From: Clostridia bacterium
GTDB lineage: Bacteria > Bacillota > Clostridia > RGIG6154
Length of the DNA stretch: 64,000 bases
Direction: 5' to 3'
NCBI GenBank assembly: GCA_045589295.1
Contig: JAZNOU010000012.1
Coordinates: 128,001-192,000 of the forward strand
Under the pieces are notes generated by a model. The model saw only the letters and a list, made by a program, of their open reading frames with translations, was not told the DNA's origin and made no database searches. The position numbers and the translations under genes are program-made. How positions within the stretch are numbered: the stretch's first letter is position 1; every line of letters starts with the position of its first letter. This document shows, one piece after another, positions 4,043-51,811 of the stretch.

Positions 4043-5068
4043 ATGAAAATTGTTACTTTAGGCGAAATTATGTTAAGACTTAAATCTCCTGGTCTTGAGA
4101 GATTTATGCAGTCACCTGCTTTTGAAGCTACATTTGGTGGCGGCGAAGCAAACGTTGCAGTTTCACTTGCAAACTACGGAATGGATGCTAAATTTGTTAC
4201 AGCGCTTCCTGAAAATGCTATTGCAGAAGCTTGTGTTAGAGAATTAAGAGGCTTTGGTGTTGATGTTTCTGACATTCAGTACACAAAAGGCAGAGTTGGT
4301 ATTTACTATTTGGAATCAGGCACAAACCAGAGACCTTCAAAGGTTATTTACGACAGAGCAGATTCTTCAATCGCTCTTGCTACACCTGATGTTTTTGATT
4401 TCAATAAGATTTTTGATGGCGCAAACTGGCTCCATATCACAGGTATCACTCCTGCACTTTCACAGTCATCAGCTGACGTTTCACTTGCTGCTGTTAAAGC
4501 TGCAAAAGAAATGGGACTTACAGTTTCTTGCGACTTAAACTACAGAAAGAACCTCTGGAAGTATGGCAAAGAAGCAAAAGAAGTTATGAGAGAGCTTGTT
4601 AAATACGTTGACGTTATCATCGCAAACGAAGAAGACTGCCAGAAATCACTTGGTATGGAAAGCTCATCAAACGTTGAAAGCGGCGAACTTGATACTAAAA
4701 AGTATGAAATTTTAGCAAAAGACGTTTTAGACCTTTATCCAAATGCACAGAGAATTGCAATCACACTTCGTGAAAGCAAGAGCGCAAATCACAACGACTG
4801 GGCTGCATGTATTTATGACAGAAAAGAATTTTATGTTTCTAAAAAATATGAAATCAAGAATATCTTAGACAGAGTTGGCGGCGGCGACAGCTTTGGCGGC
4901 GGACTTATCTATGGTCTTTTAAACTACGACAATCAGAGAGATGCTCTTGAGTTTGCAGTTGCTGCAAGTTGCTTAAAGCACTCAATTTCAGGTGACTACA
5001 ACAGAGTTACTGTTAAAGAAGTTGAAGCATTAATGGGCGGCGACGGTTCAGGCAGAGTTCAGAGATAA
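4043..5068 (+). CDS. kdgK: 2-keto-3-deoxygluconate kinase (PfkB family)
   Basis: [34 protein letters not shown]; adjacent to eda. Confidence 0.88.
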
Positions 5069-5081
5069 TCAAGCATAATTT

Positions 5082-5110
5082 GGCAGGGACAGGTTTGTCC
5101 CTGCTTTTTA
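5082..5110 (+). terminator. Intrinsic terminator after kdgK
   Basis: gcagggaca-loop-tgtccctgc followed by ttttt. Confidence 0.75.
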
Positions 5111-5125
5111 CTTGGAAGGTAATTT

Positions 5126-5932
5126 ATGATAATAGATTTTCATACCCACATTTTCCCCGACATAATAGCAAAAAGAACGGTTGAGGCTTTAAAAAAACAG
5201 TCAACAGACAATGGTTATCCTATCGAAAACCATTCGTCTGCCACACTTTCGGGGATTTTAGGCTCAATGCAAGAAAAAAGCATAGATATTTCGGTTGTTC
5301 TTCCTATTGCAACAAAGCCATCTCACTTTGAGTCAATGAACAGGTTTGCATCAGAGGTCAATAAACAACAAAATGTTATTTCTTTTGGTGCAATTCACCC
5401 CCAAGATGATGACTTGAAAGCACGTATGAAGCAAATCAAAGATATGGGCTTTAAGGGGATAAAGCTTCACCCTTATTTTCAGAACGTTAAAATTGACGAC
5501 ATCAAATTTATAAAAACTGTTGAAGAAGCGGTTAAAAATGATTTGATTGTTGCAATTCATTCGGGACTTGACAGTGGCTTTAAAACTGATATGGCAACCC
5601 CGAAAGATACATTAAAGCTTGTAAAAAACATTGACTGCTCAAAAGTTGTGTTTGCTCATATGGGCGGATGTATGCAGTGGGATTTGGTGGAAGAATACTT
5701 GGTTGGAGAAAATGTTTTATTTGATACAAGTTACTGCTTAGACATTATAAAAGATCAAGACCAATTTTTTAGGATTGTAAAAAACCATGGGGCAGATAAG
5801 ATTTTGTTTGGCTCAGATTTTCCTTGGACAGATGGCAGACAAAACGCACACAAAATCGACCAAATGCCGTTTTCACAAGAAGAAAGAGATGCCATTTTTG
5901 CAGGTAATGCAAAAAGGGTTTTAGGATTATAA
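5126..5932 (+). CDS. Amidohydrolase family (TIM-barrel metal-dependent hydrolase)
   Basis: IDFHTH, GIKLHP, AHMGG, LFGSDFPW. Confidence 0.85.
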   Translation: MIIDFHTHIFPDIIAKRTVEALKKQSTDNGYPIENHSSATLSGILGSMQEKSIDISVVLPIATKPSHFESMNRFASEVNKQQNVISFGAIHPQDDDLKARMKQIKDMGFKGIKLHPYFQNVKIDDIKFIKTVEEAVKNDLIVAIHSGLDSGFKTDMATPKDTLKLVKNIDCSKVVFAHMGGCMQWDLVEEYLVGENVLFDTSYCLDIIKDQDQFFRIVKNHGADKILFGSDFPWTDGRQNAHKIDQMPFSQEERDAIFAGNAKRVLGL

Positions 5933-5938
5933 AAAAAG

Positions 5939-5967
5939 TTGCAAGAAGTTCATATTTATGGTATACT
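5939..5967 (+). promoter_or_regulatory. Sigma-A promoter for yebC
   Basis: TTGCAA-17 nt-TATACT with TG extension. Confidence 0.7.
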
Positions 5968-6001
5968 GAAGTGGACACATATTTTTGAAAGGAATGGTTA
6001 G

Positions 6002-6739
6002 ATGTCAGGACACAGTAAGTGGTCTAATATTAAACACAAAAAAGAAAAAAGCGATAGTCAGAAAGCAAAAATCTTTACAAAAATGGGTAGAGAAATTGCT
6101 GTTGCAGTAAAACTAGGAGGTCCTGACCCCGATGCCAACTCAAGACTTAAAGATATTATCGCAAAGGCAAAGTCAATGAATGTGCCTAATGATAACATAG
6201 AAAGAAGTATTAAAAAGGCTGCAGGCGACGGAGATACAAACAATTACGAAGATATCGTATACGAAGGCTATGGTCCGTCAGGAGTTGCGGTTATTGTTGA
6301 AACTCTTACAGACAACAGAAACAGAACAGCATCTGATATGCGCCACTATTTTGATAAATTCGGCGGCAACTTAGGTCAGATGGGTTGCGTTAGCTTTATG
6401 TTTGACAAAAAAGGTATTATCATTATTGATAATGAAGAAGCGGCTTTGGACGAAGAAGAAGTTATGATGGATGCATTAGATGCAGGTGCGGCGGACTTTA
6501 TCGCAGAAGAGAACTATTTTGAAGTACAAACAGAGCCTAATGATTTTTCAAGCGTTGTTTCTGCTTTGGAAGCAAAGGGCTATAAGTTTGCTTCAGCTCA
6601 GGTTGAAAATGTACCGCAAACAACAGTAAAACTTGAAAAAGAAGAAGATATTATCAATATGAACAAGCTTATTGATATTTTAGAAGACAACGACGACGTT
6701 CAAAATATTTATCACAACTGGGAAGAAGACGATGAGTAG
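6002..6739 (+). CDS. yebC: YebC/PmpR family protein
   Basis: [14 protein letters not shown] start, [24 protein letters not shown]. Confidence 0.95.
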
Positions 6740-7235
6740 TTTAAATATTGTTTTAATAGAGCCCCAGATTCCTCAGAATACGGGGAATATCGCAAGAACG
6801 TGTGCGGCAACCAATACCATTTTGCACTTGGTTGAGCCTATGGGTTTTAAAATTGATGATAAAAAGTTAAAGCGAGCAGGACTTGACTACTGGCACTTTT
6901 TAGACATCCGCTATTATGATTCCACGGAGGATTTTTTTGAAAAAAATAAAGGCGGTGAATTTTTCTACTTCACCACCAAGGCGCTTTTAAGACATTCTGA
7001 TGTAAAATATCCCGACAACGCATACCTTGTTTTCGGCAGAGAAGATGCAGGGCTTAATGAAGCGCTTTTGCATGATAACAAAGACCATTGTGTAAGATTT
7101 CCGATGCAAAATGAAGCAAGGAGCTTAAATCTTTCAAATGCAGTTGCAATCGGGGTTTATGAGGTTTTAAGACAATGGGATTACCCCGAGCTTTTAACAA
7201 AAGGAAATTTAACAAAGTTTTCGTGGGACGAATAA
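6732..7235 (+). CDS. trmL: tRNA (cytidine/uridine-34-2'-O)-methyltransferase
   Basis: [32 protein letters not shown] (SPOUT). Confidence 0.93.
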
Positions 7236-7305
7236 GTTTTTAAGAGGGTGATTTTTACTTAATATAAAAATCTTCCTCTTTGTTTTTCTTTATAAGGAGT
7301 AAATC

Positions 7306-8235
7306 ATGTCTTTTACACTTAAAATCAAAAGAGAAATATGTAAAAATTACCCCAAAGACAGGCAAACAGCTTTAGCTGAACTTTTGGGGGTTATTTGCTT
7401 TGGCGCAAACATTAAGGGTACTTCTTTAAACGTAAAAATTGAAAATGCTTTTGTGGCAAAAAGAATTTTTTCCTTGGTAAAGCAGTGTTTTGCGGTATCG
7501 CCAGTTATTAAGACAAGCGGGACTAAAACCAAAAACATTTATTTTGTTGAAATTGCAAATGGAATGGAAGCAATTGATATTTTATCAGAACTTTTGATGG
7601 TTAAAAACTCACACGAGATGAAGAATTTTGTGTCATTTGGTATTGACGAAATATTCATCCCCGATGAAGAAACAAAGCTTGCGGTGTTAAGAGGTGCGTT
7701 TTTAATGGCAGGGTCTTGTGCGCTTCCTGAAAAAGGGTATCACTTAGAAATTGCAACAAACAAATTAAAGCTTGCAAAAGAACTTTTGCGCATAATGGAA
7801 AGTTTTGATATTTATCCTAAGCAAATAAGAAGGACATCCAACTATGTAGTATATTTAAAGGATTCCGAGCAGATTTCAGATTTTCTGGGCGGAATTGGCG
7901 CGACTACAGCAATGTCACATATGCATGACACAATGATTGTAAAAGAAATTAAAAATAATATAAACAGAATAGCAAACTGCGAGTCTGCCAATCTTGAAAA
8001 ATCAATGGATGTAGGGTTTAAACAGGCGACAAAAATTGAAAAAATCAAAGACAACATCGGTCTTGATTCGCTTGAAAGCTCACTGAAAGAGATAGCAATT
8101 TTAAGACTTGAAAATAAGTCGGCATCATTAAAAGAACTTGGAGAAATGCTTTCAAAACCGCTTTCAAAATCGGGAGTTAATCATAAACTTAAAAAATTAG
8201 AAGAAATTGCAGATAGTATAAAGGAGGTAAGGTAA
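7306..8235 (+). CDS. whiA: DNA-binding protein WhiA
   Basis: LRGAFLMAGS, YHLEI, NRIANCESANLEK, C-terminal HTH SKSGVNHKL. Confidence 0.9.
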   Translation: MSFTLKIKREICKNYPKDRQTALAELLGVICFGANIKGTSLNVKIENAFVAKRIFSLVKQCFAVSPVIKTSGTKTKNIYFVEIANGMEAIDILSELLMVKNSHEMKNFVSFGIDEIFIPDEETKLAVLRGAFLMAGSCALPEKGYHLEIATNKLKLAKELLRIMESFDIYPKQIRRTSNYVVYLKDSEQISDFLGGIGATTAMSHMHDTMIVKEIKNNINRIANCESANLEKSMDVGFKQATKIEKIKDNIGLDSLESSLKEIAILRLENKSASLKELGEMLSKPLSKSGVNHKLKKLEEIADSIKEVR

Positions 8236-43211: not shown

Positions 43212-43351
43212 AAAAAATCCCTCACTTTCTTTTTAATTAGTATAATATAAGTATTGAAAAAATGCAAATTTTTTATTATAATATATAATAGTGTAAATTT
43301 TAACTTTAATATTTACATAATTTGCCGGACATATTAAAGTCAGGAGGGAAT

Positions 43352-44803
43352 ATGGTGCGAAAAAATATTTCAAATCAGGAAGATCCTAATTTAAACAGCT
43401 CGGGGCAGACAACAGAGGTAGCGCAGGAAACAAAAGTAAAAAAAGCTCCGACAAAATTTCAAAAAGCAATTGAATATATCAAGGATAATTCTACAGTGGC
43501 AAAAAGCACAGTGATAGGGTTCTTTGTTTTTGCTGTCATATTGGCAATCGTTTCAAATATTCAGGTGGGTTATGCAGTTGTTTTTAATGATAAGACAATA
43601 GGTTATGTTGCGCACAAAGACACTGCACTTGAAAAAATTGATTTTATTTGCAAAGAAATTACCGACAATATAGCAGACACCGAAACAAATGTTACTGCTT
43701 CTTTGGTGCCTTCTGTTGCACCAGCCTTTAAATTTATAGCAGAGGACGAAATAGAACAGGCTATCAAAGAGGAGATTTCGTATTATGTTAATGCAGCGGC
43801 TGTTTATATAGATGGAGAGTTTGCGTTTGCAGCAAAAGATGCAACTGAGGCAGAAACGTTTATTAAAAAATATCAGGAAATGGTTTGCGGTGACGGAACT
43901 ATTATTTCTTCTCAAAGCGAAAACAAAGTAACATATAAAGATGAAAAGGTTATTCTTACAGAAGTGCTGGACGAGCAGGCGGCAATGTCAAGACTTGCGG
44001 GAACTGACTCAAAAGATGGACTTTATACTGTTGAAGAAGGAGATACACTGTGGAATATTGGTATTGATAACGATATTGCAACAGACTATCTTATGGTGCT
44101 TAACAACTTAGATAGTGAGGTTCTTCAGATAGGAACTGTTTTGAGGGTAAAATATCCAGAACCTATAATTGATGTTAAGGTAGTAAAAGATATTACCTAT
44201 ACCGAAATTCATCCCTACGAAACTGAGAAAAGATATGACAAAAATCTCAACGTCGGAACATATCGAACATATCAAAAGGGCTCTAACGGCGAAACAAGGG
44301 TAAGAGCAATTGTAACTTATGTTAACGGCAATGAAATTGAACGTGAAATTACAGAAAAAACTGTTTTAAGTGAGCCTGTTACAGAAATTCTTTTGGTAGG
44401 AACAAAGCCAAAGCCAAAAACTGCGGCGACAGGAAAGTTTGCAAGACCTATTTCGGGTGGATATGTGTCGTCCTCATTTGGCAACAGAAGCCGTGGATAT
44501 CATACAGGCGTTGACTGGGCAGTTTCATATGGAACACCTATTTATGCATCAGACGGCGGAACAGTTACAGCCGCCGGATGGGGTGGTGGTTACGGCAAAA
44601 TGGTTAAAATTAATCATGGTAATGGGTATGAAACTTTGTATGCCCATTGCTCAAAGCTTGTCGTATCAAGTGGAAAGAAAGTTGCAAAGGGGCAGCTTAT
44701 TGGTTATGTAGGTAGTACAGGAAACAGCACAGGACCTCATTTGCATTTTGAAATAAGAAGAAATGGTTCATACCTCAATCCTACTAAATATTGTGGTGAA
44801 TAA
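43352..44803 (+). CDS. LysM-G5-M23 peptidoglycan endopeptidase
   Basis: TM helix, LysM YTVEEGDTLW, G5-like segment, HTGVD, YAHCS, STGPHLHFE; ATG at 43352 after AGGAGG. Confidence 0.9.
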   Translation: MVRKNISNQEDPNLNSSGQTTEVAQETKVKKAPTKFQKAIEYIKDNSTVAKSTVIGFFVFAVILAIVSNIQVGYAVVFNDKTIGYVAHKDTALEKIDFICKEITDNIADTETNVTASLVPSVAPAFKFIAEDEIEQAIKEEISYYVNAAAVYIDGEFAFAAKDATEAETFIKKYQEMVCGDGTIISSQSENKVTYKDEKVILTEVLDEQAAMSRLAGTDSKDGLYTVEEGDTLWNIGIDNDIATDYLMVLNNLDSEVLQIGTVLRVKYPEPIIDVKVVKDITYTEIHPYETEKRYDKNLNVGTYRTYQKGSNGETRVRAIVTYVNGNEIEREITEKTVLSEPVTEILLVGTKPKPKTAATGKFARPISGGYVSSSFGNRSRGYHTGVDWAVSYGTPIYASDGGTVTAAGWGGGYGKMVKINHGNGYETLYAHCSKLVVSSGKKVAKGQLIGYVGSTGNSTGPHLHFEIRRNGSYLNPTKYCGE

Positions 44804-44809
44804 AACTTT

Positions 44810-44842
44810 AAGCAATCTCTCTTGTATGGGGGGATTGCTTGT
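44810..44842 (+). terminator. Terminator-like hairpin after the M23 gene
   Basis: aagcaatctctc ... gggggattgctt. Confidence 0.6.
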
Positions 44843-44875
44843 AGGTTTTTGTCGCAAAATTTTTAGAAAAAACAC

Positions 44876-44904
44876 TTGATTTTGGTAAGTAGGTGTGCTA
44901 TAAT
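44876..44904 (+). promoter_or_regulatory. Sigma-A promoter heading the RRE/S-layer operon
   Basis: TTGATT-17 nt-TATAAT with TG extension. Confidence 0.8.
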
Positions 44905-44967
44905 TATCTTACGTAGGTATAACTGTGGATTTTTTTGTGTACCAATCAATTTTTGGAAGGTGAACAG

Positions 44968-45231
44968 ATGCGACTAAAAGATGGCTTTTTATTAAGAAAT
45001 GTTGCCGGTGAATATGTTGTTGTCCCAACAGGGAACAGCATGGTTGACTTTAAGGCTATGATATCTCTTAATGAAACAGGCGCGTTTTTATGGGAGCAGC
45101 TTTTAGCAGACAAATCAGAGCAGCAACTTTTAGATGCGCTTTTGAGTGAGTATGACGTTGATGAAAAAACCGCATCTGAAGATATTAAAGAGTTTGTAGA
45201 GTTGCTTAAAGAAAAGAACCTGTTGGTATGA
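44968..45231 (+). CDS. PqqD-family RiPP recognition element (stand-alone RRE)
   Basis: FLLRNVAGEYVVVP, LNETGAFLWEQL, EYDVD...A..DI.EF...L; ATG at 44968 after GGAAGGTG. Confidence 0.9.
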   Translation: MRLKDGFLLRNVAGEYVVVPTGNSMVDFKAMISLNETGAFLWEQLLADKSEQQLLDALLSEYDVDEKTASEDIKEFVELLKEKNLLV

Positions 45232-45680
45232 ATATGAAAAAAGTCTTAAGTACAAAAGAGATTATGCCTCTTGTGGGAGACATCTTAAAAACGGCGGAGC
45301 GAGTTAGGTTTACCGTTAAGGGAAACAGTATGTATCCGCTTTTAAGGTCGGACCGCGACGAGGTAGAGGTTATAAAGTGCGATAGTATAGGCAAGTATGA
45401 TATTGTTCTTTACAAAAGAAACAATGGTGACTATATTCTTCACAGGGTGCTCAAAGAAAATGACAACGCACTTTCAATAGCAGGCGATTTTGAACAGGAA
45501 CTTGAAAGCCCTGTGTATAAAGATCAGGTTATTGCAAAAGTTGTCAATATAATAAGAGACGGTAAAAAAGTTATCTCTTGTAACAACGGCATCTATAAAA
45601 CGTATTGTGTTTTGTGGGCGGCGGTATTTAAAAACAGACGAAGGATACTTAAAATACTTAAGAAACTGAGGAAATGGTGA
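45228..45680 (+). CDS. S24/S26 family peptidase (Ser-His type)
   Basis: VKGNSMYPLL (catalytic Ser), ILHRV, AGD; overlaps the RRE stop. Confidence 0.85.
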   Translation: MNMKKVLSTKEIMPLVGDILKTAERVRFTVKGNSMYPLLRSDRDEVEVIKCDSIGKYDIVLYKRNNGDYILHRVLKENDNALSIAGDFEQELESPVYKDQVIAKVVNIIRDGKKVISCNNGIYKTYCVLWAAVFKNRRRILKILKKLRKW

Positions 45681-47350
45681 AATTGAAAAATAAAGATATC
45701 GCTAAACAATGGTTTTTTAAGAATATCAGACAGGTTTTTGGCGGAGTTTTTGCTCTTACTTTTGTTTCTGTCCTGATTAATGTGTCAGGTGTCGGATTTG
45801 CGATTTCTTCAAAACGTGTTTTGGATGTAGCATCTAATTCAACTGAAGGGAACTTATTAACAGAAGCTTTAGTTTTGTTTTCTTTGGTTGTGATTCAGCT
45901 TATTTTGCAAATTATCCTCTCTAAGTGCTATGTTAAAACGCAGGCACAAACGAGAATTAAAATAAAAACCGACTTGTTTGAAAGCATAGTGAAAAAAGAT
46001 TTAACTGAGGTGAATTTTTATCACTCGGGTGAGTTGGTTAACAGGCTCACAAGCGACGTTAACGTTGTGTCAAACGCGGTGGTGGATATTTTACCAACTG
46101 CGATAGCACTTAGCATTGGGGTTTGTTTAAGCTTTGGGGTATTGTTCAGTTTGGACCCTGTTTATGCAGTTATTTATCTGATAGTTGCACCCCTTGCACT
46201 TTTAACTGCAAGATTTTTTAGAAAAAGGCTTAAAGTGTTACATAAAGAGTCGGTTTCAACCGACGGGATTGTTAAATCGTTTATGCAGGAATGTTTCAGA
46301 AATCTGCTCGTGGTCAAGGCTTTTGAAAAAGAAGATCACGTAACCGAAAAGTGTAATGCTTATCAACTTGCTAACTACAAGGTTTTGATAAAGAAAAACG
46401 ATATCAGCATTTTAGCGAACGTAATGTTCTTTTTGTCCATTACTGCAGGCTATTATTTAACTCTTATTTGGGGGGCATACAAGCTTTCGATAGGAATTTT
46501 AACAATCGGTGAAATTGTTGCAATGCTTGAACTTGTTTCACAAATTCAGTCCCCGCTAAAGTCATTATCATCACTTCTTCCGCAGTATTATTCGGCGGTA
46601 GCTTCATCTGAAAGAATTTTGGAGCTTGAAGATTTGCCTGATGAAAAACAACTAAATGCAAGCAGTGAAAAAGTTGATGACTTTTCAAAGCTTGTCATTG
46701 ACAATATGTCTTTTTCGTATGATGAAAGTTTAATTTTTGATAAAGCTTCCTGCGAAATTGAAAAAGGCGACATCGTCGGAATTTACGGCGAGTCGGGAAT
46801 TGGAAAAAGCACACTTATAAAACTTATTTTAGGAGTGCTTAAGCCCAATAAGGGCGAGATTTACATAGTTGACCCGAGCGGTCAAAAGATTTTGGTTGAT
46901 ACAGAAACTAAAAACCTGTTTTCTTATGTGCCTCAAGGTAACCTGATATTATCTGGCACAATAGCAGAAAACGTGGTTTTCGGTTCTGACAACATAGATA
47001 TAAAGCTGGTTGAACGTTGCATCAAAGTGTCGCAGCTTGATGAAATGGTCAGTCAGTTGCCACTAAAACTTGATACAGGTTTGGGTGAAGGCGGCCTAGG
47101 TCTTTCTGAAGGACAGGTACAGCGATTATCTATCGCAAGGGCATTGTATCGGAATTCTGAAATACTGTTGCTTGATGAAGCAACGTCGGCTCTTGACCGA
47201 GAAACCGAAATCAGGGTGTTGGAGGAAATGAAGAGTTTGAATAAGACTTGTCTTTTCATAACTCACCGCAAAGAAGCACTTTTAAGTTGCAGCAAGCTTT
47301 TAAGTGTGAAAAACGGAAAGATTTCCATCGACAGGCAGGAAATTTTATAA
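45674..47350 (+). CDS. ABC exporter (fused TMD-NBD, no peptidase domain)
   Basis: About 6 TM helices, HSGELVNRLTSD, GESGIGKST, LSEGQVQR, LLLDEATSALD. Confidence 0.92.
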   Translation: MVKLKNKDIAKQWFFKNIRQVFGGVFALTFVSVLINVSGVGFAISSKRVLDVASNSTEGNLLTEALVLFSLVVIQLILQIILSKCYVKTQAQTRIKIKTDLFESIVKKDLTEVNFYHSGELVNRLTSDVNVVSNAVVDILPTAIALSIGVCLSFGVLFSLDPVYAVIYLIVAPLALLTARFFRKRLKVLHKESVSTDGIVKSFMQECFRNLLVVKAFEKEDHVTEKCNAYQLANYKVLIKKNDISILANVMFFLSITAGYYLTLIWGAYKLSIGILTIGEIVAMLELVSQIQSPLKSLSSLLPQYYSAVASSERILELEDLPDEKQLNASSEKVDDFSKLVIDNMSFSYDESLIFDKASCEIEKGDIVGIYGESGIGKSTLIKLILGVLKPNKGEIYIVDPSGQKILVDTETKNLFSYVPQGNLILSGTIAENVVFGSDNIDIKLVERCIKVSQLDEMVSQLPLKLDTGLGEGGLGLSEGQVQRLSIARALYRNSEILLLDEATSALDRETEIRVLEEMKSLNKTCLFITHRKEALLSCSKLLSVKNGKISIDRQEIL

Positions 47351-47372
47351 AGTTTGTTTGGGAGGAATAAAG

Positions 47373-48329
47373 ATGAAATGTAAGAGAATTATCAAAGTAG
47401 TAAGTGCGCTTGCATTAACTGTAGCTTTGTTAGTATCTGCTAGTGTTGTTTCATTTGCTGCAACATATACAACACAGACAACATACATTAATGAAGATAC
47501 TATTGAAGTTATTTCAAGAGCTACAGGCTTAAACGATGGCGAAATGGCTACTTATGTTGCTTACAGAAACGGCGAGTTCTCAGAAACTAATGCAGTTTAC
47601 ATCGACCAGGCAACAGAGCAGGACAATGCAGTTGAATTTAGATATCAGGCAGATTCTGATGATGTAAAAGCAACAGTATTGTTCGGCGGTGAAAGCGCAC
47701 CGAATACATTGGAGCCGGATAAAGTTGGTCATAAAATTACAGTATATGTTAACGAAGTGGCTCAAGGCGACCAAGTTGCTGCTTATGCTGTAGCTGACTA
47801 TGACGGCGAATATCTCGCAAGAGAATTTTCGGTAAACATTGAAAACGGAAAAGCTATTAAAAAAGTTGAATTCGCAGCTGATGGAGCTGAAAAAACAACT
47901 GTAGAAGCTTGGTATGTTAAAAATGGCGCGTTGGTTGTATTAAGCCGTGTTATTGAATCAGATGGTTCATTGTACATTACAGCAGAGGATGCAACCATTT
48001 CTGTTAAACTTGGTGCTGTTACTGGTACTGAAAACACAATTACTGCATTTGCCAAAGCAGTTTGCACAGATGATGCAGACTACGGAATCTTAATTGCGGA
48101 CTCAGAAGTTGAAATCGAAGCTGCTGGTCGTATTGACTGGAAAGATGCTGAAGACTACACAACTCCGGTTTATTTCAATGCTTTAGGCAAAGGTAACAAT
48201 GGTGTATTTGCAGTAGAAGTAACTGATGAAGACTGCTTTGTTGCAGGTAAAAGCTTTAATGTAAAAGCTTATGCTGATTCTGGAGAGACAGAAGTGTATT
48301 CAATTGATACTGTAACTGTAAGATTATAA
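47373..48329 (+). CDS. Secreted acidic beta-rich protein of unknown function
   Basis: ATG at 47373 after GGAGGA; Sec signal peptide ending SFA-A; VYIDQ motif; Ig-like beta pattern. Confidence 0.75.
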   Translation: MKCKRIIKVVSALALTVALLVSASVVSFAATYTTQTTYINEDTIEVISRATGLNDGEMATYVAYRNGEFSETNAVYIDQATEQDNAVEFRYQADSDDVKATVLFGGESAPNTLEPDKVGHKITVYVNEVAQGDQVAAYAVADYDGEYLAREFSVNIENGKAIKKVEFAADGAEKTTVEAWYVKNGALVVLSRVIESDGSLYITAEDATISVKLGAVTGTENTITAFAKAVCTDDADYGILIADSEVEIEAAGRIDWKDAEDYTTPVYFNALGKGNNGVFAVEVTDEDCFVAGKSFNVKAYADSGETEVYSIDTVTVRL

Positions 48330-48376
48330 GAGCGACTGTATCATTTAACGATACAAATTCAGGAGGAGAATTTACT

Positions 48377-48538
48377 ATGAAAAATTATCAAAAACCTGTT
48401 TTAGAGGTTGTTGAATTAGCAGTTGCTGAAAATATCGCTGCATTAGTGCCGAAAACTATCTATAAAAGATCAGTTGGCAAGAAGATGGCTCAGGACACCA
48501 GAATAATGCTTGTAGAAGATTTAAGTAATCTTAGCTAA
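48377..48538 (+). CDS. Putative RiPP precursor, 53 aa (not in ORF track): MKNYQKPVLEVVELAVAENIAALVPKTIYKRSVGKKMAQDTRIMLVEDLSNLS
   Basis: Manual translation; AGGAGGAG RBS; YQKPVL RRE-binding motif; C-terminal Ser; directly upstream of the kinase-like gene. Confidence 0.85.
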   Translation: MKNYQKPVLEVVELAVAENIAALVPKTIYKRSVGKKMAQDTRIMLVEDLSNLS

Positions 48539-48587
48539 TTTTAGCACTGCAAATTAAATAAAAATTTGAGAGGATGTTTACTTTAAT

Positions 48588-49463
48588 ATGCAATATACTG
48601 TCGCAGGTTTTAATATTGATGTTGTCAGTGAACATCCTTCTTATCTTTTTATGAGACTCAAAGACTATGAAAGCACTTTTTCGGGGGAAGCAGACTTTAC
48701 AGTCAGGTGTAAAGAAGAAAAAAATATCGCTCTCCCCGATGATATTGTGCTTATAGGTCAAAGAGTCGGAAGATGGATATGGTTTGAAAAAAAAGATGGT
48801 ACGCTCGGTGCGTACATAAAATATGACGATGTCGAAAACATTGCGGCATTGGCATTGTGGGATAAAGCTTTTAAAAATATTGAATTATCTGTTTATGATA
48901 TTGAGCCATACGGCAATTTGCCAATAGCTCAAAGAATTTTTTATTTACTGGGAGATGTTATTGCATACTCGGTATTAAACTGCGGTGCAGGAGTTTTCCA
49001 TTCTTCTGCGATAAGTTATAAAGGAAACGGGATTTTATTTTCCGCACCATCGGGAACAGGAAAATCCACACATACATCTTTATGGAAAGATGTTTTTGGT
49101 GATAATGTTGTTATATTTAATGACGATACACCAATACTTAAGATAGAAAATGACGTTTGTTTTGCCTACGGCTCACCTTGGAGCGGCAAAACTGCGATTA
49201 ATGAAAATATAAAGGTTCCGCTTAAGGCGATTGTATGCCTTGACAGAGCGCAGACCAATTCAATAAAAAGACTTACGGGGATTAGTGCTTTTTACAGAAT
49301 TTTCAATGAAATGAGAAAGCCTCCGGTTGAGAGTCTTATGGACAAGAGTCTTACGGTTATGGATAGTATTTTGCAGAAAGTTCCGGTTTACGAGCTTTTT
49401 TGCAATAAAAATAAAGATGCAGTAATGACAGTTTTTGACGCTGTCGGTTTTGACAAATTATAA
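48588..49463 (+). CDS. HPr-kinase-like P-loop protein (peptide kinase candidate)
   Basis: FHSSAI, APSGTGKST Walker A, NDD acidic pair, GSPWSGK. Confidence 0.8.
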   Translation: MQYTVAGFNIDVVSEHPSYLFMRLKDYESTFSGEADFTVRCKEEKNIALPDDIVLIGQRVGRWIWFEKKDGTLGAYIKYDDVENIAALALWDKAFKNIELSVYDIEPYGNLPIAQRIFYLLGDVIAYSVLNCGAGVFHSSAISYKGNGILFSAPSGTGKSTHTSLWKDVFGDNVVIFNDDTPILKIENDVCFAYGSPWSGKTAINENIKVPLKAIVCLDRAQTNSIKRLTGISAFYRIFNEMRKPPVESLMDKSLTVMDSILQKVPVYELFCNKNKDAVMTVFDAVGFDKL

Positions 49464-49477
49464 GAGAGGTAAAAAGG

Positions 49478-51088
49478 ATGAATAAAAAAATATTTTTTGG
49501 TACACTTTTGTGTATGGTTTTATGTTTAAGCATTGCGACATGCGCATTTGCCGCAACATTTTCTGATTTATCAAAAAGCCACTGGGCGTACGATAATATT
49601 GTCGAATTAAGTTCACAGGGGGTTATAAACGGATACTCTGACGGTACATTTCGCCCCGAAGCATATGTTACGAGAGCTGAATTTGTTAAGCTTATAGGTA
49701 CAATCGATACAATCAAAAATGGTGACTTTGACGACCTACCTAAAACTCACTGGGCATATGAATACGTTATGAAATCAGGGGTTGATGTTGACAGAAAGAA
49801 CTTTCGCCCTGATGAAAATATCACAAGAGCAGAAGTTTTAGATATATTGTGGAACAGATATGGAACTGAAACAGATGCAAAAGTTCCCGGAATTATAGAA
49901 AATCAGCACAAAAATGTTCCGGCTGTTACCTGGGGATATTCTTACGGACTTATGATAGGCGATGACGGAATAAATTTAAGACTTAGTGATGATTTGTCAA
50001 GAGCAGAAGCGGTTACACTTATTTTGCGCTCCAGAAAGATTGATACATCAAAGCAAAAGTTGCTTGCAGACAATGTAAACAGCAAGATTTTGGAAAATAT
50101 TTTTAATGATACAATGCTTTTTGATAAACCTTACAGTGAAAATGAAACAGTTACAGTTGGCGAAATTTCACACGCAGCTTTAAGACTTGCATATCAAACA
50201 AAGCAAATTCCATATAACAAGGATTTGTATATCGGCGATCCACAATTTGATGGTGATTATGCACTTGATATTGCTCACATGGCAAAACAAGTATTTGGTG
50301 AAGCTTCAAACAACAAAGAGTTTGCAGAAGGCAAGGCAAATCAACAGCAGGTTTTGGCAGCACTTATGTATGGTTATATGTTTAAAGCAAACGACTCGCC
50401 TGTAATCGGCAGAATGGATGATTACTACAAAGATGCAGTTGTTGCAAAAGGTCTTACAATGCAAAATATGTTACTTACATACACTAACAGACGCGGCATT
50501 TTTGCAAGCGCTGACGGACTTTTGCATAATGACAAAGCTGTAACACATAAAGAAATTGCATCAATTCTTTTGCAACTTGATAACTTTACAGGTTCACAAA
50601 TAAGCTATTCAAACGGCAAAGAATCGGATGAAAAATTAAGCACAGATGCTTATATTTACGAAAATGCAGATGATGGATTTGGAATTTTATTAAAAGGCAT
50701 TCCAAACGTAGTTTACGAGACACCAATGAAAGCTCCTGCTAAAGAGTTTACAGTTTTTGCAAGAGATTTCTTTGAAATATTTACTACTCTTTCAGATGGC
50801 ATTAAGGCAAAAGCCAAAAGCGAGGGCGCTGAAATTGTTTTAAGAGTTTATCCAACACTTATTGCAAATGCAGGCAATGAAGTTATTATGAGAACAAAGA
50901 TATATGTAGCTTCAAATCCAAAAGGCTTAAATCTTGGTGAAATTATCGGTAAGTGCGATATGAATACAGATATTAAAGCCTTGGAAGGTAAAACGTATTT
51001 TGTTGATATTTCAACCAATCATCCATTGGATGACATGTACATCAATCCTGAAAATGTAAGCTTAAAACAGCTTATATGGAATGATTAA
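49478..51088 (+). CDS. SLH-domain surface protein
   Basis: Signal peptide (AFA-A), FSDL...HWA, GYSDGTFRP, TRAE/TRAE/SRAE. Confidence 0.88.
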   Translation: MNKKIFFGTLLCMVLCLSIATCAFAATFSDLSKSHWAYDNIVELSSQGVINGYSDGTFRPEAYVTRAEFVKLIGTIDTIKNGDFDDLPKTHWAYEYVMKSGVDVDRKNFRPDENITRAEVLDILWNRYGTETDAKVPGIIENQHKNVPAVTWGYSYGLMIGDDGINLRLSDDLSRAEAVTLILRSRKIDTSKQKLLADNVNSKILENIFNDTMLFDKPYSENETVTVGEISHAALRLAYQTKQIPYNKDLYIGDPQFDGDYALDIAHMAKQVFGEASNNKEFAEGKANQQQVLAALMYGYMFKANDSPVIGRMDDYYKDAVVAKGLTMQNMLLTYTNRRGIFASADGLLHNDKAVTHKEIASILLQLDNFTGSQISYSNGKESDEKLSTDAYIYENADDGFGILLKGIPNVVYETPMKAPAKEFTVFARDFFEIFTTLSDGIKAKAKSEGAEIVLRVYPTLIANAGNEVIMRTKIYVASNPKGLNLGEIIGKCDMNTDIKALEGKTYFVDISTNHPLDDMYINPENVSLKQLIWND

Positions 51089-51118
51089 TCTGGTTTAATT
51101 TACATGGAGGAAAAATAA

Positions 51119-51811
51119 ATGGAAGAAAGAGAAATTGATATCTGGGGACTAATACAGTCAATAATTAAGAGATGGTGGATTGTTGCTATTATCACTGTTA
51201 TAGTCGGAACAACAGGTTTTACATATTCAAAATTTGCAATCACTCCTTTGTATGCGGCAAAAGGAACACTTTATATTACCGTAGACAATACTGCCTCCTT
51301 GCAAGGTGGAACAAGTCTTGATTACAACTCAATTTTGGCGGCACAGGAGCTTACAAAAACATATTCTTTAATACTTTCAAGTAATACATTCTACAGAATT
51401 GTTGCTGCAGAAAGCGGACTTGACTACAGCTATAAAGAAATTTCAAGAATGGTTACAATGGGCAACGAAAATGACAGTGAAATTATGTCGATTACAGCAA
51501 AATGTGCAAATAGAGAACACGCAGCTATTATTGTTGAAACTATACTTAACAATGCACAGGCAGAAATTTCAAGAGTGGTTATTGGCGGAAGTGTAAGAAT
51601 TATTGACCATCCTGAACTTCCTAACGGACACTCATATCCTAACGTAACAAAGAACACATTCTTATGCTTGGCGCTTGGTGTTATCTTAGGTTGTGCTCTT
51701 GCAATTTTCATTGAATGGCTTGATGATACAATCAAGAGTGATGAGGATGTGCTGAAGTTTGGCATCCCGATATTAGCAGTTATCCCGCTTTTAGAAACAA
51801 AAAGCGAGTAA
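51119..51811 (+). CDS. Wzz/CpsC(CapA)-type polysaccharide co-polymerase / BY-kinase modulator
   Basis: EIDIWGL, two TM helices flanking an extracellular loop, IIDHP..P..PN, LDDTIKS, GIPILAVIP. Confidence 0.85.
   Translation: MEEREIDIWGLIQSIIKRWWIVAIITVIVGTTGFTYSKFAITPLYAAKGTLYITVDNTASLQGGTSLDYNSILAAQELTKTYSLILSSNTFYRIVAAESGLDYSYKEISRMVTMGNENDSEIMSITAKCANREHAAIIVETILNNAQAEISRVVIGGSVRIIDHPELPNGHSYPNVTKNTFLCLALGVILGCALAIFIEWLDDTIKSDEDVLKFGIPILAVIPLLETKSE

Follow-up and report, generated by a model that had tools for sequence, protein, structure and literature searches.

A probable LppA-like precursor gene in a cyclase-less, RRE-dependent peptide operon of a clostridial bacterium

The DNA analysed here, which we call the window, is a stretch of 64,000 nt from a Clostridia bacterium (RGIG6154; assembly GCA_045589295.1, contig JAZNOU010000012.1, positions 128,001-192,000, + strand), and all coordinates below are counted from its first letter. 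In it, a 53-codon open reading frame (ORF) at 48377-48538 (+) precedes a kinase-like gene, and our principal finding is that this ORF is, with good likelihood, a translated LppA-like precursor gene of a cyclase-less operon that depends on a PqqD-family RRE. In other words, we regard the operon as a relative, from Clostridia, of the systems for linear polyphosphorylated peptides (LPP) that were defined in Bacilli (Popov et al., Nat Commun 2026, PMC13381572), a reading that draws on sequence comparison, on a modelled complex and on analogy with the described systems.

The maturation pathway that we propose would run as follows. The leader, residues 1-22, would use Y4, P7 and L9 to join the PqqD RRE as a further beta-strand, as conservation and the model suggest, and the RRE would in turn offer the peptide to the HprK-fold kinase for phosphorylation of a Ser near the C-terminus. 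In this genus, that Ser would be the invariant Ser53, in the manner of paeninodin rather than at the LppA-type core position 3. The RRE-leader pair would dock on the N-terminal helix of a soluble Ser34/His72 signal-peptidase-like enzyme, which would cut after I20-A21-A22, and the 31-residue core (LVPKTIYKRS...NLS) would be exported by an MsbA-like ABC exporter. As for the role of the product, gene linkage points to the cell envelope.

The small gene and its hypervariable tail

The ORF opens with an ATG at 48377 and closes with AGC (48533-48535) and TAA (48536-48538); a ribosome-binding site, AGGAGGAG, lies at 48361-48368 (+), 8 nt 5' of the ATG, and the kinase-like gene starts at 48588, 49 nt past the end of the ORF. 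The translation, MKNYQKPVLEVVELAVAENIAALVPKTIYKRSVGKKMAQDTRIMLVEDLSNLS, contains Y4-Q-K-P7-V-L9 and ends in Ser53. A first-pass annotation, made from the letters of the window, had claimed just such a strong ribosome-binding site and a 53-residue ORF right before the kinase-like gene, and its coordinates, translation, motif and terminal Ser all proved exact. What is more, a small homologous ORF with the same N-terminus stands immediately 5' of the kinase-like gene in 12/12 loci of the same family (own locus counted), and a GGAGG-type site lies 5' of the small ORF in most of 13 related loci. The 291-aa kinase-like protein itself is present in 24 of 41 related genomes (17/17 from the same family, and 6/23 other families of the class). 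The same annotation had described the ORF as uncalled, which is true of its own gene track only, as the exact protein is present in a public protein collection (P0001, 2 member sequences). Searching a large protein collection with a profile made from 58 distinct peptides of the family gave, out of 536 candidates, 219 proteins with E<=0.001; the 120 matches listed, which include the window's own protein, are all devoid of Pfam domains, and those that bear a name are called 'hypothetical protein'. The genome has one copy of the gene, and when solved structures were searched with the peptide and with its profile, 0 matches at E<=10 were obtained.

When members of the genus are compared, 2-5 synonymous and 0-1 non-synonymous differences fall in codons 1-31, with a synonymous divergence (dS) of 0.11-0.30 and a non-synonymous divergence (dN) of 0-0.014; judging from this low dN relative to dS, the protein sequence encoded by codons 1-31 is under purifying selection. 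The tail is a different matter. Between our locus and that of genome G002 it is saturated (proportions of synonymous and non-synonymous differences, pS and pN, of 0.77 and 0.62, respectively), and against the constrained leader this means that, on the present comparisons, turnover of the tail is far faster than that of the leader, possibly via replacement. Between genomes G001 and G003, the tail gives a dN of 0.305 and a dS of 0.181, albeit from small numbers (13.7 non-synonymous and 2.3 synonymous changes). To judge by these values, the core tail looks like the result of either cassette-type replacement or very strong diversification. Over short distances the change is steep: in the stretch 48470-48535, and in the same stretch of loci L002-L004, pS is 0.77, as compared with a pS of 0.10 for the leader 90 nt off.

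Taken as a gene, 48377-48538 can be regarded as confirmed, and we infer that it serves as the precursor gene of a peptide-maturation operon. Could its product instead be a conserved small protein that stays unprocessed, acting, say, as a regulator or in the assembly of the neighbouring secreted and SLH-domain proteins, in which the YxxP motif is incidental? Such a role would fit the linkage of the gene to envelope genes in many loci and its retention over whole families, which sets it apart from typical antibiotic clusters. That said, a constant leader in front of a hypervariable tail is the pattern of a precursor, the Tyr and Pro are invariant at exactly those positions that lasso-type RREs need according to published accounts, the gene is linked to an RRE, a peptidase and an exporter in most loci, and the same type of leader occurs elsewhere fused to Cys-rich cores beside radical-SAM enzymes. 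We therefore consider an unprocessed protein highly improbable.

Leader recognition and the probable cut site

Viewed as a precursor, the peptide can be divided into a leader, codons 1-22 (MKNYQKPVLEVVELAVAENIAA; 48377-48442, +), which is delineated by conservation, modelling and purifying selection and carries Y4xxP7xL9, L14, E18 and the proposed P3-P1 residues I20-A21-A22, and a proposed core, codons 23-53 (48443-48535, +), in which conservation within the own clade suggests a box LVPKTIYK(R), a hypervariable middle and the terminal Ser53 (48533-48535). Y4 and P7 are invariant in 58/58 distinct relatives, and M1, L14 and E18 are each kept in at least 90% of them. Counts for the individual positions refer to 57 of the 58 peptides, as L101, with one extra residue before the Tyr, was left out. 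Namely, position 9 is I, V or L in 45/57 peptides, E18 is kept in 53/57, position 20 is I, L or M in 52/57 and position 21 is A or S in 54/57, while position 22 is occupied by A (34 peptides), T (6), G (6) or C (3), which together make up 49/57. The resulting consensus is MKxYxKPxhxVVELxVxExh[AS]A, and past position 22 the family sequences diverge.

Two plausible cut sites had been named in the first-pass annotation, A-V-A (15-17) and I-A-A (20-22). The former can be discarded, since positions 15-17 are without conservation. The latter is favoured, since a conserved hydrophobic-small-small triplet suits the P3-P1 positions of a signal-peptidase-type site, and from these alignments the leader is likely cut after A22, with I20-A21-A22 as P3-P1.

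It is instructive to compare this assignment with LPP precursors, in which YxxPxVLxHQxIxFETxxS is followed by variable C-termini and which are cut by LppS (catalytic residues S29/H68/D93) after Thr(-1), in a reaction that requires LppB, proceeds poorly in the absence of phosphorylation, and depends on F(-3), E(-2), T(-1) and L(-10) (PMC13381572). One may argue that the peptide studied here belongs to the same system and is processed in the same register, with the Tyr at -16, a cut after N19 and a core starting as I-A-A-L-V-P-K-T-I-Y-K. Indeed, a gapless overlay on the published consensus puts Y4, P7, L9 and E18 on the Tyr, the Pro, the Val and Glu(-2), respectively, and E18 is among the well-kept residues of the family. 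However, the residue that would serve as P1, position 19, is N in 18, S in 12, R in 11 and D in 5 of the 57 peptides, and the one that would serve as P3, position 17, is E, K, R, A or S, whereas in LppA P3 is a Phe held in a hydrophobic cleft and P1 is a Thr, both of them important for cleavage. Positions 20-22 are a better match to the pattern of a hydrophobic P3 and a small P1, and the modelled interface described below extends to residue 24. All in all, we regard the LppA register as rather unlikely and retain the cut after A22 as the preferred assignment.

A structure prediction of the peptide with the RRE had been suggested in the first-pass annotation; we ran it with the peptidase added, i.e., as a three-chain model of RRE, peptidase and peptide, each entered as an alignment of our own, a set-up that differs from the one used for calibration. 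The complex scored 0.67 (runs 0.67, 0.72 and 0.66), as compared with 0.29 for the best of three controls, and passed a mark that is reached by 58/80 solved complexes and by 2/110 mismatched pairs; contact agreement among the runs was at least 88% and the partner pLDDT at least 60. The confident interface comprises residues 1-24 and 28 of the peptide, 28-38 and 58-83 of the RRE, and 2-15, 28-35 and 68-72 of the peptidase. In particular, peptide residues 4-14 sit on RRE residues 28-41 and 62-76 in the model, and the peptide continues to residue 24 at the active-site region of the peptidase (stretches 28-35 and 68-72). Together with the invariance of Y4 and P7, the model supports binding of the leader to the RRE, in line with the initial proposal that the YxxPxL leader suits the adjacent PqqD RRE, and it fits a cut near residue 22. 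The interface also agrees with that reported for LppB and LppS, where the sheet formed by RRE and leader is packed against the N-terminal helix of the peptidase.

The two proteins in question are encoded side by side. The RRE (44968-45231, +; Pfam PqqD, 4.9e-19) is 87 aa long when read from its ATG, the ORF lister having placed the start at a TTG at 44935. Its D72 is invariant in 54 sequences, the alignment holding 54 of 56 rows after removal of L074 (internal stop in the coordinates used) and L077 (over-long ORF call). The candidate leader peptidase (45228-45680, +) is a 150-aa Ser/His enzyme resembling signal peptidase I of the SipW/archaeal type (TIGR02228, 1.8e-5, under the cut-off), and archaeal/SipW-type signal peptidase I provides its sole family matches. 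It bears the 'GxSMxP' and 'HR' boxes, its S34, H72 and D87 are invariant in 72 sequences, and inspection of the sequence by eye revealed no N-terminal membrane anchor.

The HprK-fold protein and the terminal serine

The gene following the peptide gene (48588-49463, +) encodes a 291-aa P-loop protein with a Walker A motif SGTGKST, which we consider a candidate peptide Ser kinase. Its AlphaFold2 (AF2) model has a pLDDT of 95.4, and the top Foldseek matches are HPr kinase/phosphatase (1knx, 1.8e-6; TM 0.57-0.59 to the catalytic domains of 1jb1 and 3tqf) and PEP carboxykinase. H138, K159 and D180 are invariant and D179 is kept in at least 90% of 41 sequences (41 of 46 rows were used, L065, L071, L075, L092 and L097 being left out for an internal stop in the coordinates used). 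The only curated-family match is to ScmC (TIGR04249) at 7.4e-5, which lies below the cut-off (22.2 bits vs 125). Kinases of the paeninodin type phosphorylate the C-terminal Ser of their precursors and have a His-Lys-Asp-Asp motif in common, as described in PMC9266682.

The terminal Ser had been put forward as the target of the kinase, to be sought, together with YxxP, among homologues. While YxxP is kept throughout, the Ser tells two stories. In our own clade, 41/41 variants end in [LIMN]S, namely 32/32 with identical residues 4-31 and 9/9 with one or two changes, and here the Ser is invariant; family-wide, however, the terminal residue is Ser in just 10/58 distinct peptides (Ala in 16, Gly in 9), too few for a rule. 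In the own clade, the tail is hypervariable; apart from the hydroxyl residues within the box, the last Ser is the sole invariant one from there on, and in several variants this equivalent of Ser53 is the only Ser present. Ser32 (in T-I-Y-K-R-S) is ruled out as the acceptor, as residue 32 varies over seven types (A, D, E, G, K, S and T). Other clades hold a Ser near the end, in 'N-V-T-I-Y-K-K-T-S' 4-10 residues from the end, in '[TS]S-I-I' or in '[TS]S[LM][AT][KN]A'. Taking the family as a whole, 65.5% of cores have a Ser within the last 5 residues, as compared with 38.9% of shuffled ones, a value reached by 0/2000 shuffles, and yet an overstated one, because the sequences are related.

Would a different role of the HprK-fold protein explain these observations better? 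In such a case the precursor would be the same, and the protein would either act on another Ser or Thr in or after the T-I-Y-K box, or would assist the RRE and the peptidase, in an ATP-dependent way, in handling the leader, as its ScmC-like relatives in radical-SAM cassettes may do. The scarcity of terminal Ser across the family and the internal Ser kept by the other clades speak for this, as does the ScmC match being the sole curated one. What is more, LppK adds up to four phosphates to core Ser3, giving a linear product, and thus targets a Ser other than the terminal one (PMC13381572). Finally, the gene is also retained beside radical-SAM genes and Cys-rich cores, and therefore a role other than Ser phosphorylation is possible. 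On the other side stand the pattern of invariant hydroxyls in the own clade, with its varying residue 32 and its variants devoid of any other Ser, the conserved P-loop and His/Lys/Asp/Asp set, and the family-wide enrichment of Ser near the end, inflated by kinship as it may be. In addition, the S3T and S3Y variants of LppA are left unphosphorylated by LppK (PMC13381572). Weighing the two sides, we think a role other than last-Ser kinase unlikely, though it deserves to be kept in view, and we continue with phosphorylation of Ser53 as the preferred assignment in this genus.

The sister loci just mentioned merit a description of their own. In L052, L057, L065, L071, L075, L077, L089 and L092, the same leader, MKxYxKPxhEhVEL, is found on Cys-rich cores; a gene with a Cys motif of the radical-SAM type, as recognized by eye, lies upstream, and the HprK-fold gene abuts the peptidase gene (around 4500-7500 of each locus). 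Some of these loci carry two or three precursor genes. From this arrangement, several chemistries may draw on the trio of RRE, peptidase and HprK-fold protein, and the HprK-fold protein may accordingly aim at another target or be something other than a kinase.

Kinship, distribution and neighbouring genes

A pattern scan with a 4-sequence alignment of the peptidase, covering one genome per species, matched 494 stretches, 452 of which encode a relative, and the locus counts given here refer to the best 80 of these 452, many loci being clipped by contig ends. All of the best 80 come from Clostridia/Bacillota records, mostly metagenome-assembled genomes (MAGs) from gut and rumen, and a few come from cultured carriers, including Anaerocolumna xylanovorans DSM 12503 and Acetivibrio sp. 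MSJd-27. Next to the peptidase, PqqD occurs in 74/80 loci, the ABC exporter in 60/80, the kinase-like gene in 53/80, a peptide matching the leader profile in 45/80, an SLH relative in 30/80 and Wzz in 15/80. When the class was sampled evenly, matches to the peptidase profile turned up in 148/401 genomes and 79/216 genera; they cover nearly all genomes of some families (f1 14/15, f7 12/14, f10 11/12 and f12 11/12), whereas other families gave no match (f8 0/15, f30 0/11). The clostridial branch is thus much larger than the described LPP systems of Bacilli and is common in gut and rumen MAGs, and it is set apart by a leader grammar of its own, by a likely acceptor site that differs, and by tight linkage to envelope proteins. 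It may, in this sense, hint at the role of phosphorylated linear peptides in abundant, mostly uncultured gut anaerobes. Moreover, hundreds of cores on one type of leader represent a natural series with which to probe substrate recognition by the RRE-guided peptidase and the HprK-like kinase.

How close is the operon to the LPP systems? LPP clusters, lppA-K-B-S-D-N, are described from Paenibacillus alginolyticus DSM5050 and other Bacilli, and their gene set comprises a SipW-like peptidase (LppS, WP_029196374.1), an RRE (LppB), an HprK-like kinase (LppK), an NTP-transferase (LppN), an MsbA-like exporter and the precursors; they are located in capsule loci and distributed patchily (PMC13381572). 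In our literature search, this paper was the only one found to link a signal-peptidase-like enzyme to an RRE; the words 'Clostridi', 'gut' and 'S-layer' are absent from its article text, while its supplementary tables may list clostridial homologues. The operon in the window shares with LPP clusters the discrete PqqD RRE, the MsbA-like exporter, a leader peptidase of the SipW/archaeal type with a Ser/His/Asp set (S34/H72/D87 here, S29/H68/D93 in LppS), an HprK-like kinase, as judged from its P-loop, its conserved H138/K159/D179/D180 and its modelled HPr kinase fold, and a precursor with a conserved N-terminus bearing YxxPx[VL] and a variable C-terminus. A cyclase was not found in the operon, and capsule or envelope genes, here Wzz (51119-51811), lie nearby. 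It should be noted that this likeness to the LPP proteins rests on features, a sequence score having been computed for LppB only (E 0.018).

The differences from the LPP systems are nevertheless considerable. Following YxxPx[VL], the leader reads xVVELxVxExhAA here and VLxHQxIxFETxxS there; the likely cut lies 19 residues past the Tyr as compared with 16 in LppA; the own clade carries an invariant C-terminal Ser; co-conservation extends to a secreted Ig-like protein and an SLH protein; and the system is kept across whole clostridial families, such as f1, f7 and f10, whereas its distribution in Bacilli is patchy. By analogy, the invariant C-terminal Ser of the own clade looks more like that of paeninodin precursors than like LppA.

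Several observations weigh directly against our reading, and we gather them here. First, an NTP-transferase of the LppN type is missing between 44968 and 51811. Second, in the gapless overlay on the published consensus, only the Tyr, the Pro, the V/L position and one Glu match, the LppA register that it implies would place the cut after N19, and the position of the LPP acceptor Ser3 is occupied by Ala22, a position that is Ala in 34/57 peptides and Ser in 0/57. Third, the RRE is closer in sequence to lasso B1 proteins than to LppB, its best solved relatives being TbiB1 (7.6e-6) and TfuB1 (0.004), followed by PbaB1 (0.014) and LppB (0.018), and both the peptidase and the kinase stay under every curated family cut-off. 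Fourth, the rarity of the terminal Ser in the family and the presence of the kinase-like gene in the radical-SAM sister loci, both discussed above, bear on the proposed phosphorylation. Finally, the score of the complex may reflect the RRE-leader complexes of lasso and LPP systems that have already been solved, and the calibration was made with another set-up. Consequently, because the NTP-transferase lies outside the cluster and the extended leader motif and the Ser3 acceptor are missing, our analysis files the operon, by analogy, as a clostridial variant of the LPP kind and not as a plain member, with 5/6 core gene types in common. As for the missing enzyme, the only NTP_transf_5 (PF14907) gene of the genome lies on another contig (G000:C10:10529-11239; L103:1153-2316, -), beside a galactokinase-like gene, and this unlinked enzyme, of the LppN/PsmN-type family, could act on the peptide in trans.

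A lasso peptide was also considered. The first-pass annotation had found no canonical lasso junction, and in this it was right: a junction of Thr at -2, a small residue at 1 and Asp/Glu at 7-9 has no conserved instance in the family, which diverges past position 22. Its nearest candidate, S-V-G34 with Asp at core position 7, is ruled out, since neither a B2 protein nor a cyclase was found in the genome, which is 97.4% complete: B2 (PF13471, Transglut_core3) gave 0 matches, and for the cyclase there are only two short, weak PF00733 (Asn-synthase) matches (27 and 22 bits) in unrelated ORFs. The initial description of the operon as a cyclase-less set of RRE, peptidase, kinase and exporter is thereby upheld.

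Paeninodin-type systems (PadeA/ThcoA and PadeK/ThcoK; Zhu et al. 2016, as cited in PMC9266682) resemble the present one, as far as that source describes them, in their YxxPxL leader with a discrete B1 RRE, in an HprK-like kinase with the His-Lys-Asp-Asp set, which there acts on the precursor, and in the C-terminal Ser of kinase-linked precursors, with the restriction that here the Ser is general in the own clade only. They differ in that here a cyclase, a B2 cysteine protease and a Thr(-2)/ring junction were not found and removal of the leader would fall to a serine peptidase. SynChlorMet cassettes likewise pair an HprK-related protein (ScmC, TIGR04249) with a PqqD protein (ScmD, TIGR04248) in peptide maturation; the matches, however, are weak and far under the cut-offs (22.2 bits vs 125 for ScmC, 16.9 vs 100 for ScmD), and the operon in the window is without a radical-SAM gene, whereas the sister loci of the family carry such genes together with Cys-rich cores.

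All genes of the operon and the neighbours listed here are on the + strand (43322-51811). Directly 5' of the peptide gene lies a gene for a secreted protein (47373-48329), which has no Pfam match and is predicted to consist of a signal peptide and three beta-sandwich domains (AF2 pLDDT 85). Modelled as tandem beta-sandwich domains, it gives generic Ig/FN3-like fold matches with a TM of about 0.2, and homologues of 200-490 residues fill the same slot in most loci that hold both the kinase and SLH genes (33 aligned; Y38 and Q79 invariant). SipW is the archaeal-type signal peptidase of Bacillus subtilis and processes TasA and TapA. The peptidase in the window is of the same Ser/His type, down to the 'GxSMxP' and 'HR' boxes, but differs in having, by inspection, no N-terminal anchor, in being paired with an RRE, and in that its likely substrate is an acidic leader and not a signal peptide. 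The idea that the secreted protein is TasA-like, with the peptidase as its SipW, is unsupported: the matches are the generic ones just given, with no TasA entry among those listed. The T-x-Y box as a mimic of the N-terminal 'TTTxY' strand of the secreted protein, in the sense of donor-strand pairing, is ruled out: with a 9-column position-specific scoring matrix of that strand, only 8.5% of 165 cores outscored their shuffled versions at p<=0.05, and our own peptide gave p = 0.82.

Next after the kinase gene comes a gene for an SLH-domain protein (49478-51088, +; SLH 1.9e-23), which is followed by one for a Wzz-type chain-length determinant (51119-51811, +) recognized by family search. Where an SLH relative is present in the sampled loci, it stands mostly right after the kinase gene, and this co-occurrence suggests that the peptide system is tied to the cell wall or the S-layer. 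Going further, one may envisage a lineage-retained yet strain-variable envelope or signalling module, as opposed to sporadic antibiotics, in which a constant leader and box would be joined to a tail that changes from species to species by swapping or diversification and ends in a phosphorylated Ser, the exported product would work with the secreted Ig-like and the wall-anchored SLH proteins, and the trio of RRE, soluble signal-peptidase-like enzyme and HprK-fold protein would perhaps be a general leader-handling unit, reused with radical-SAM enzymes by other clostridia. We offer this as speculation, and in its entirety it is doubtful; if true, the product might be a strain-specific surface tag, a peptide linked to a wall polymer, or a kin signal.

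The remaining features of the locus concern its boundaries and its exporter. The latter (45674-47350, +) is an MsbA-like ABC half-transporter (ABC_membrane 2.7e-32, ABC_tran 2.9e-26, with MsbA-type NCBIfam matches), and the family search gave no match to a peptidase domain in it. Upstream of the RRE gene, a consensus scan, the only evidence for the sites of this kind, yields a terminator-like hairpin (44809-44841, +; a 14-pair stem and then a T-run), which likely delimits the operon on its upstream side, and the best of the promoter-like sites in the region (44876-44904, +; TTGATT-17-TATAAT with TG, 10/12 matches), promoter-like sites being no more numerous across the region than in shuffles. 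Between the peptide gene and the kinase gene, the same scan gave no terminator-like site on the + strand. Upstream of the hairpin lies a gene for an M23/LysM/G5 wall hydrolase (43322-44803, +), and this is probably outside the peptide system, because it is linked to the operon in only 3/80 peptidase-anchored loci, those with the nearest peptidase identity. Elsewhere in the genome, a second ORF with a PqqD domain (110 aa; G000:C13, L108:1495-1827, -) lies between two large, hydrophobic, transporter-like ORFs.

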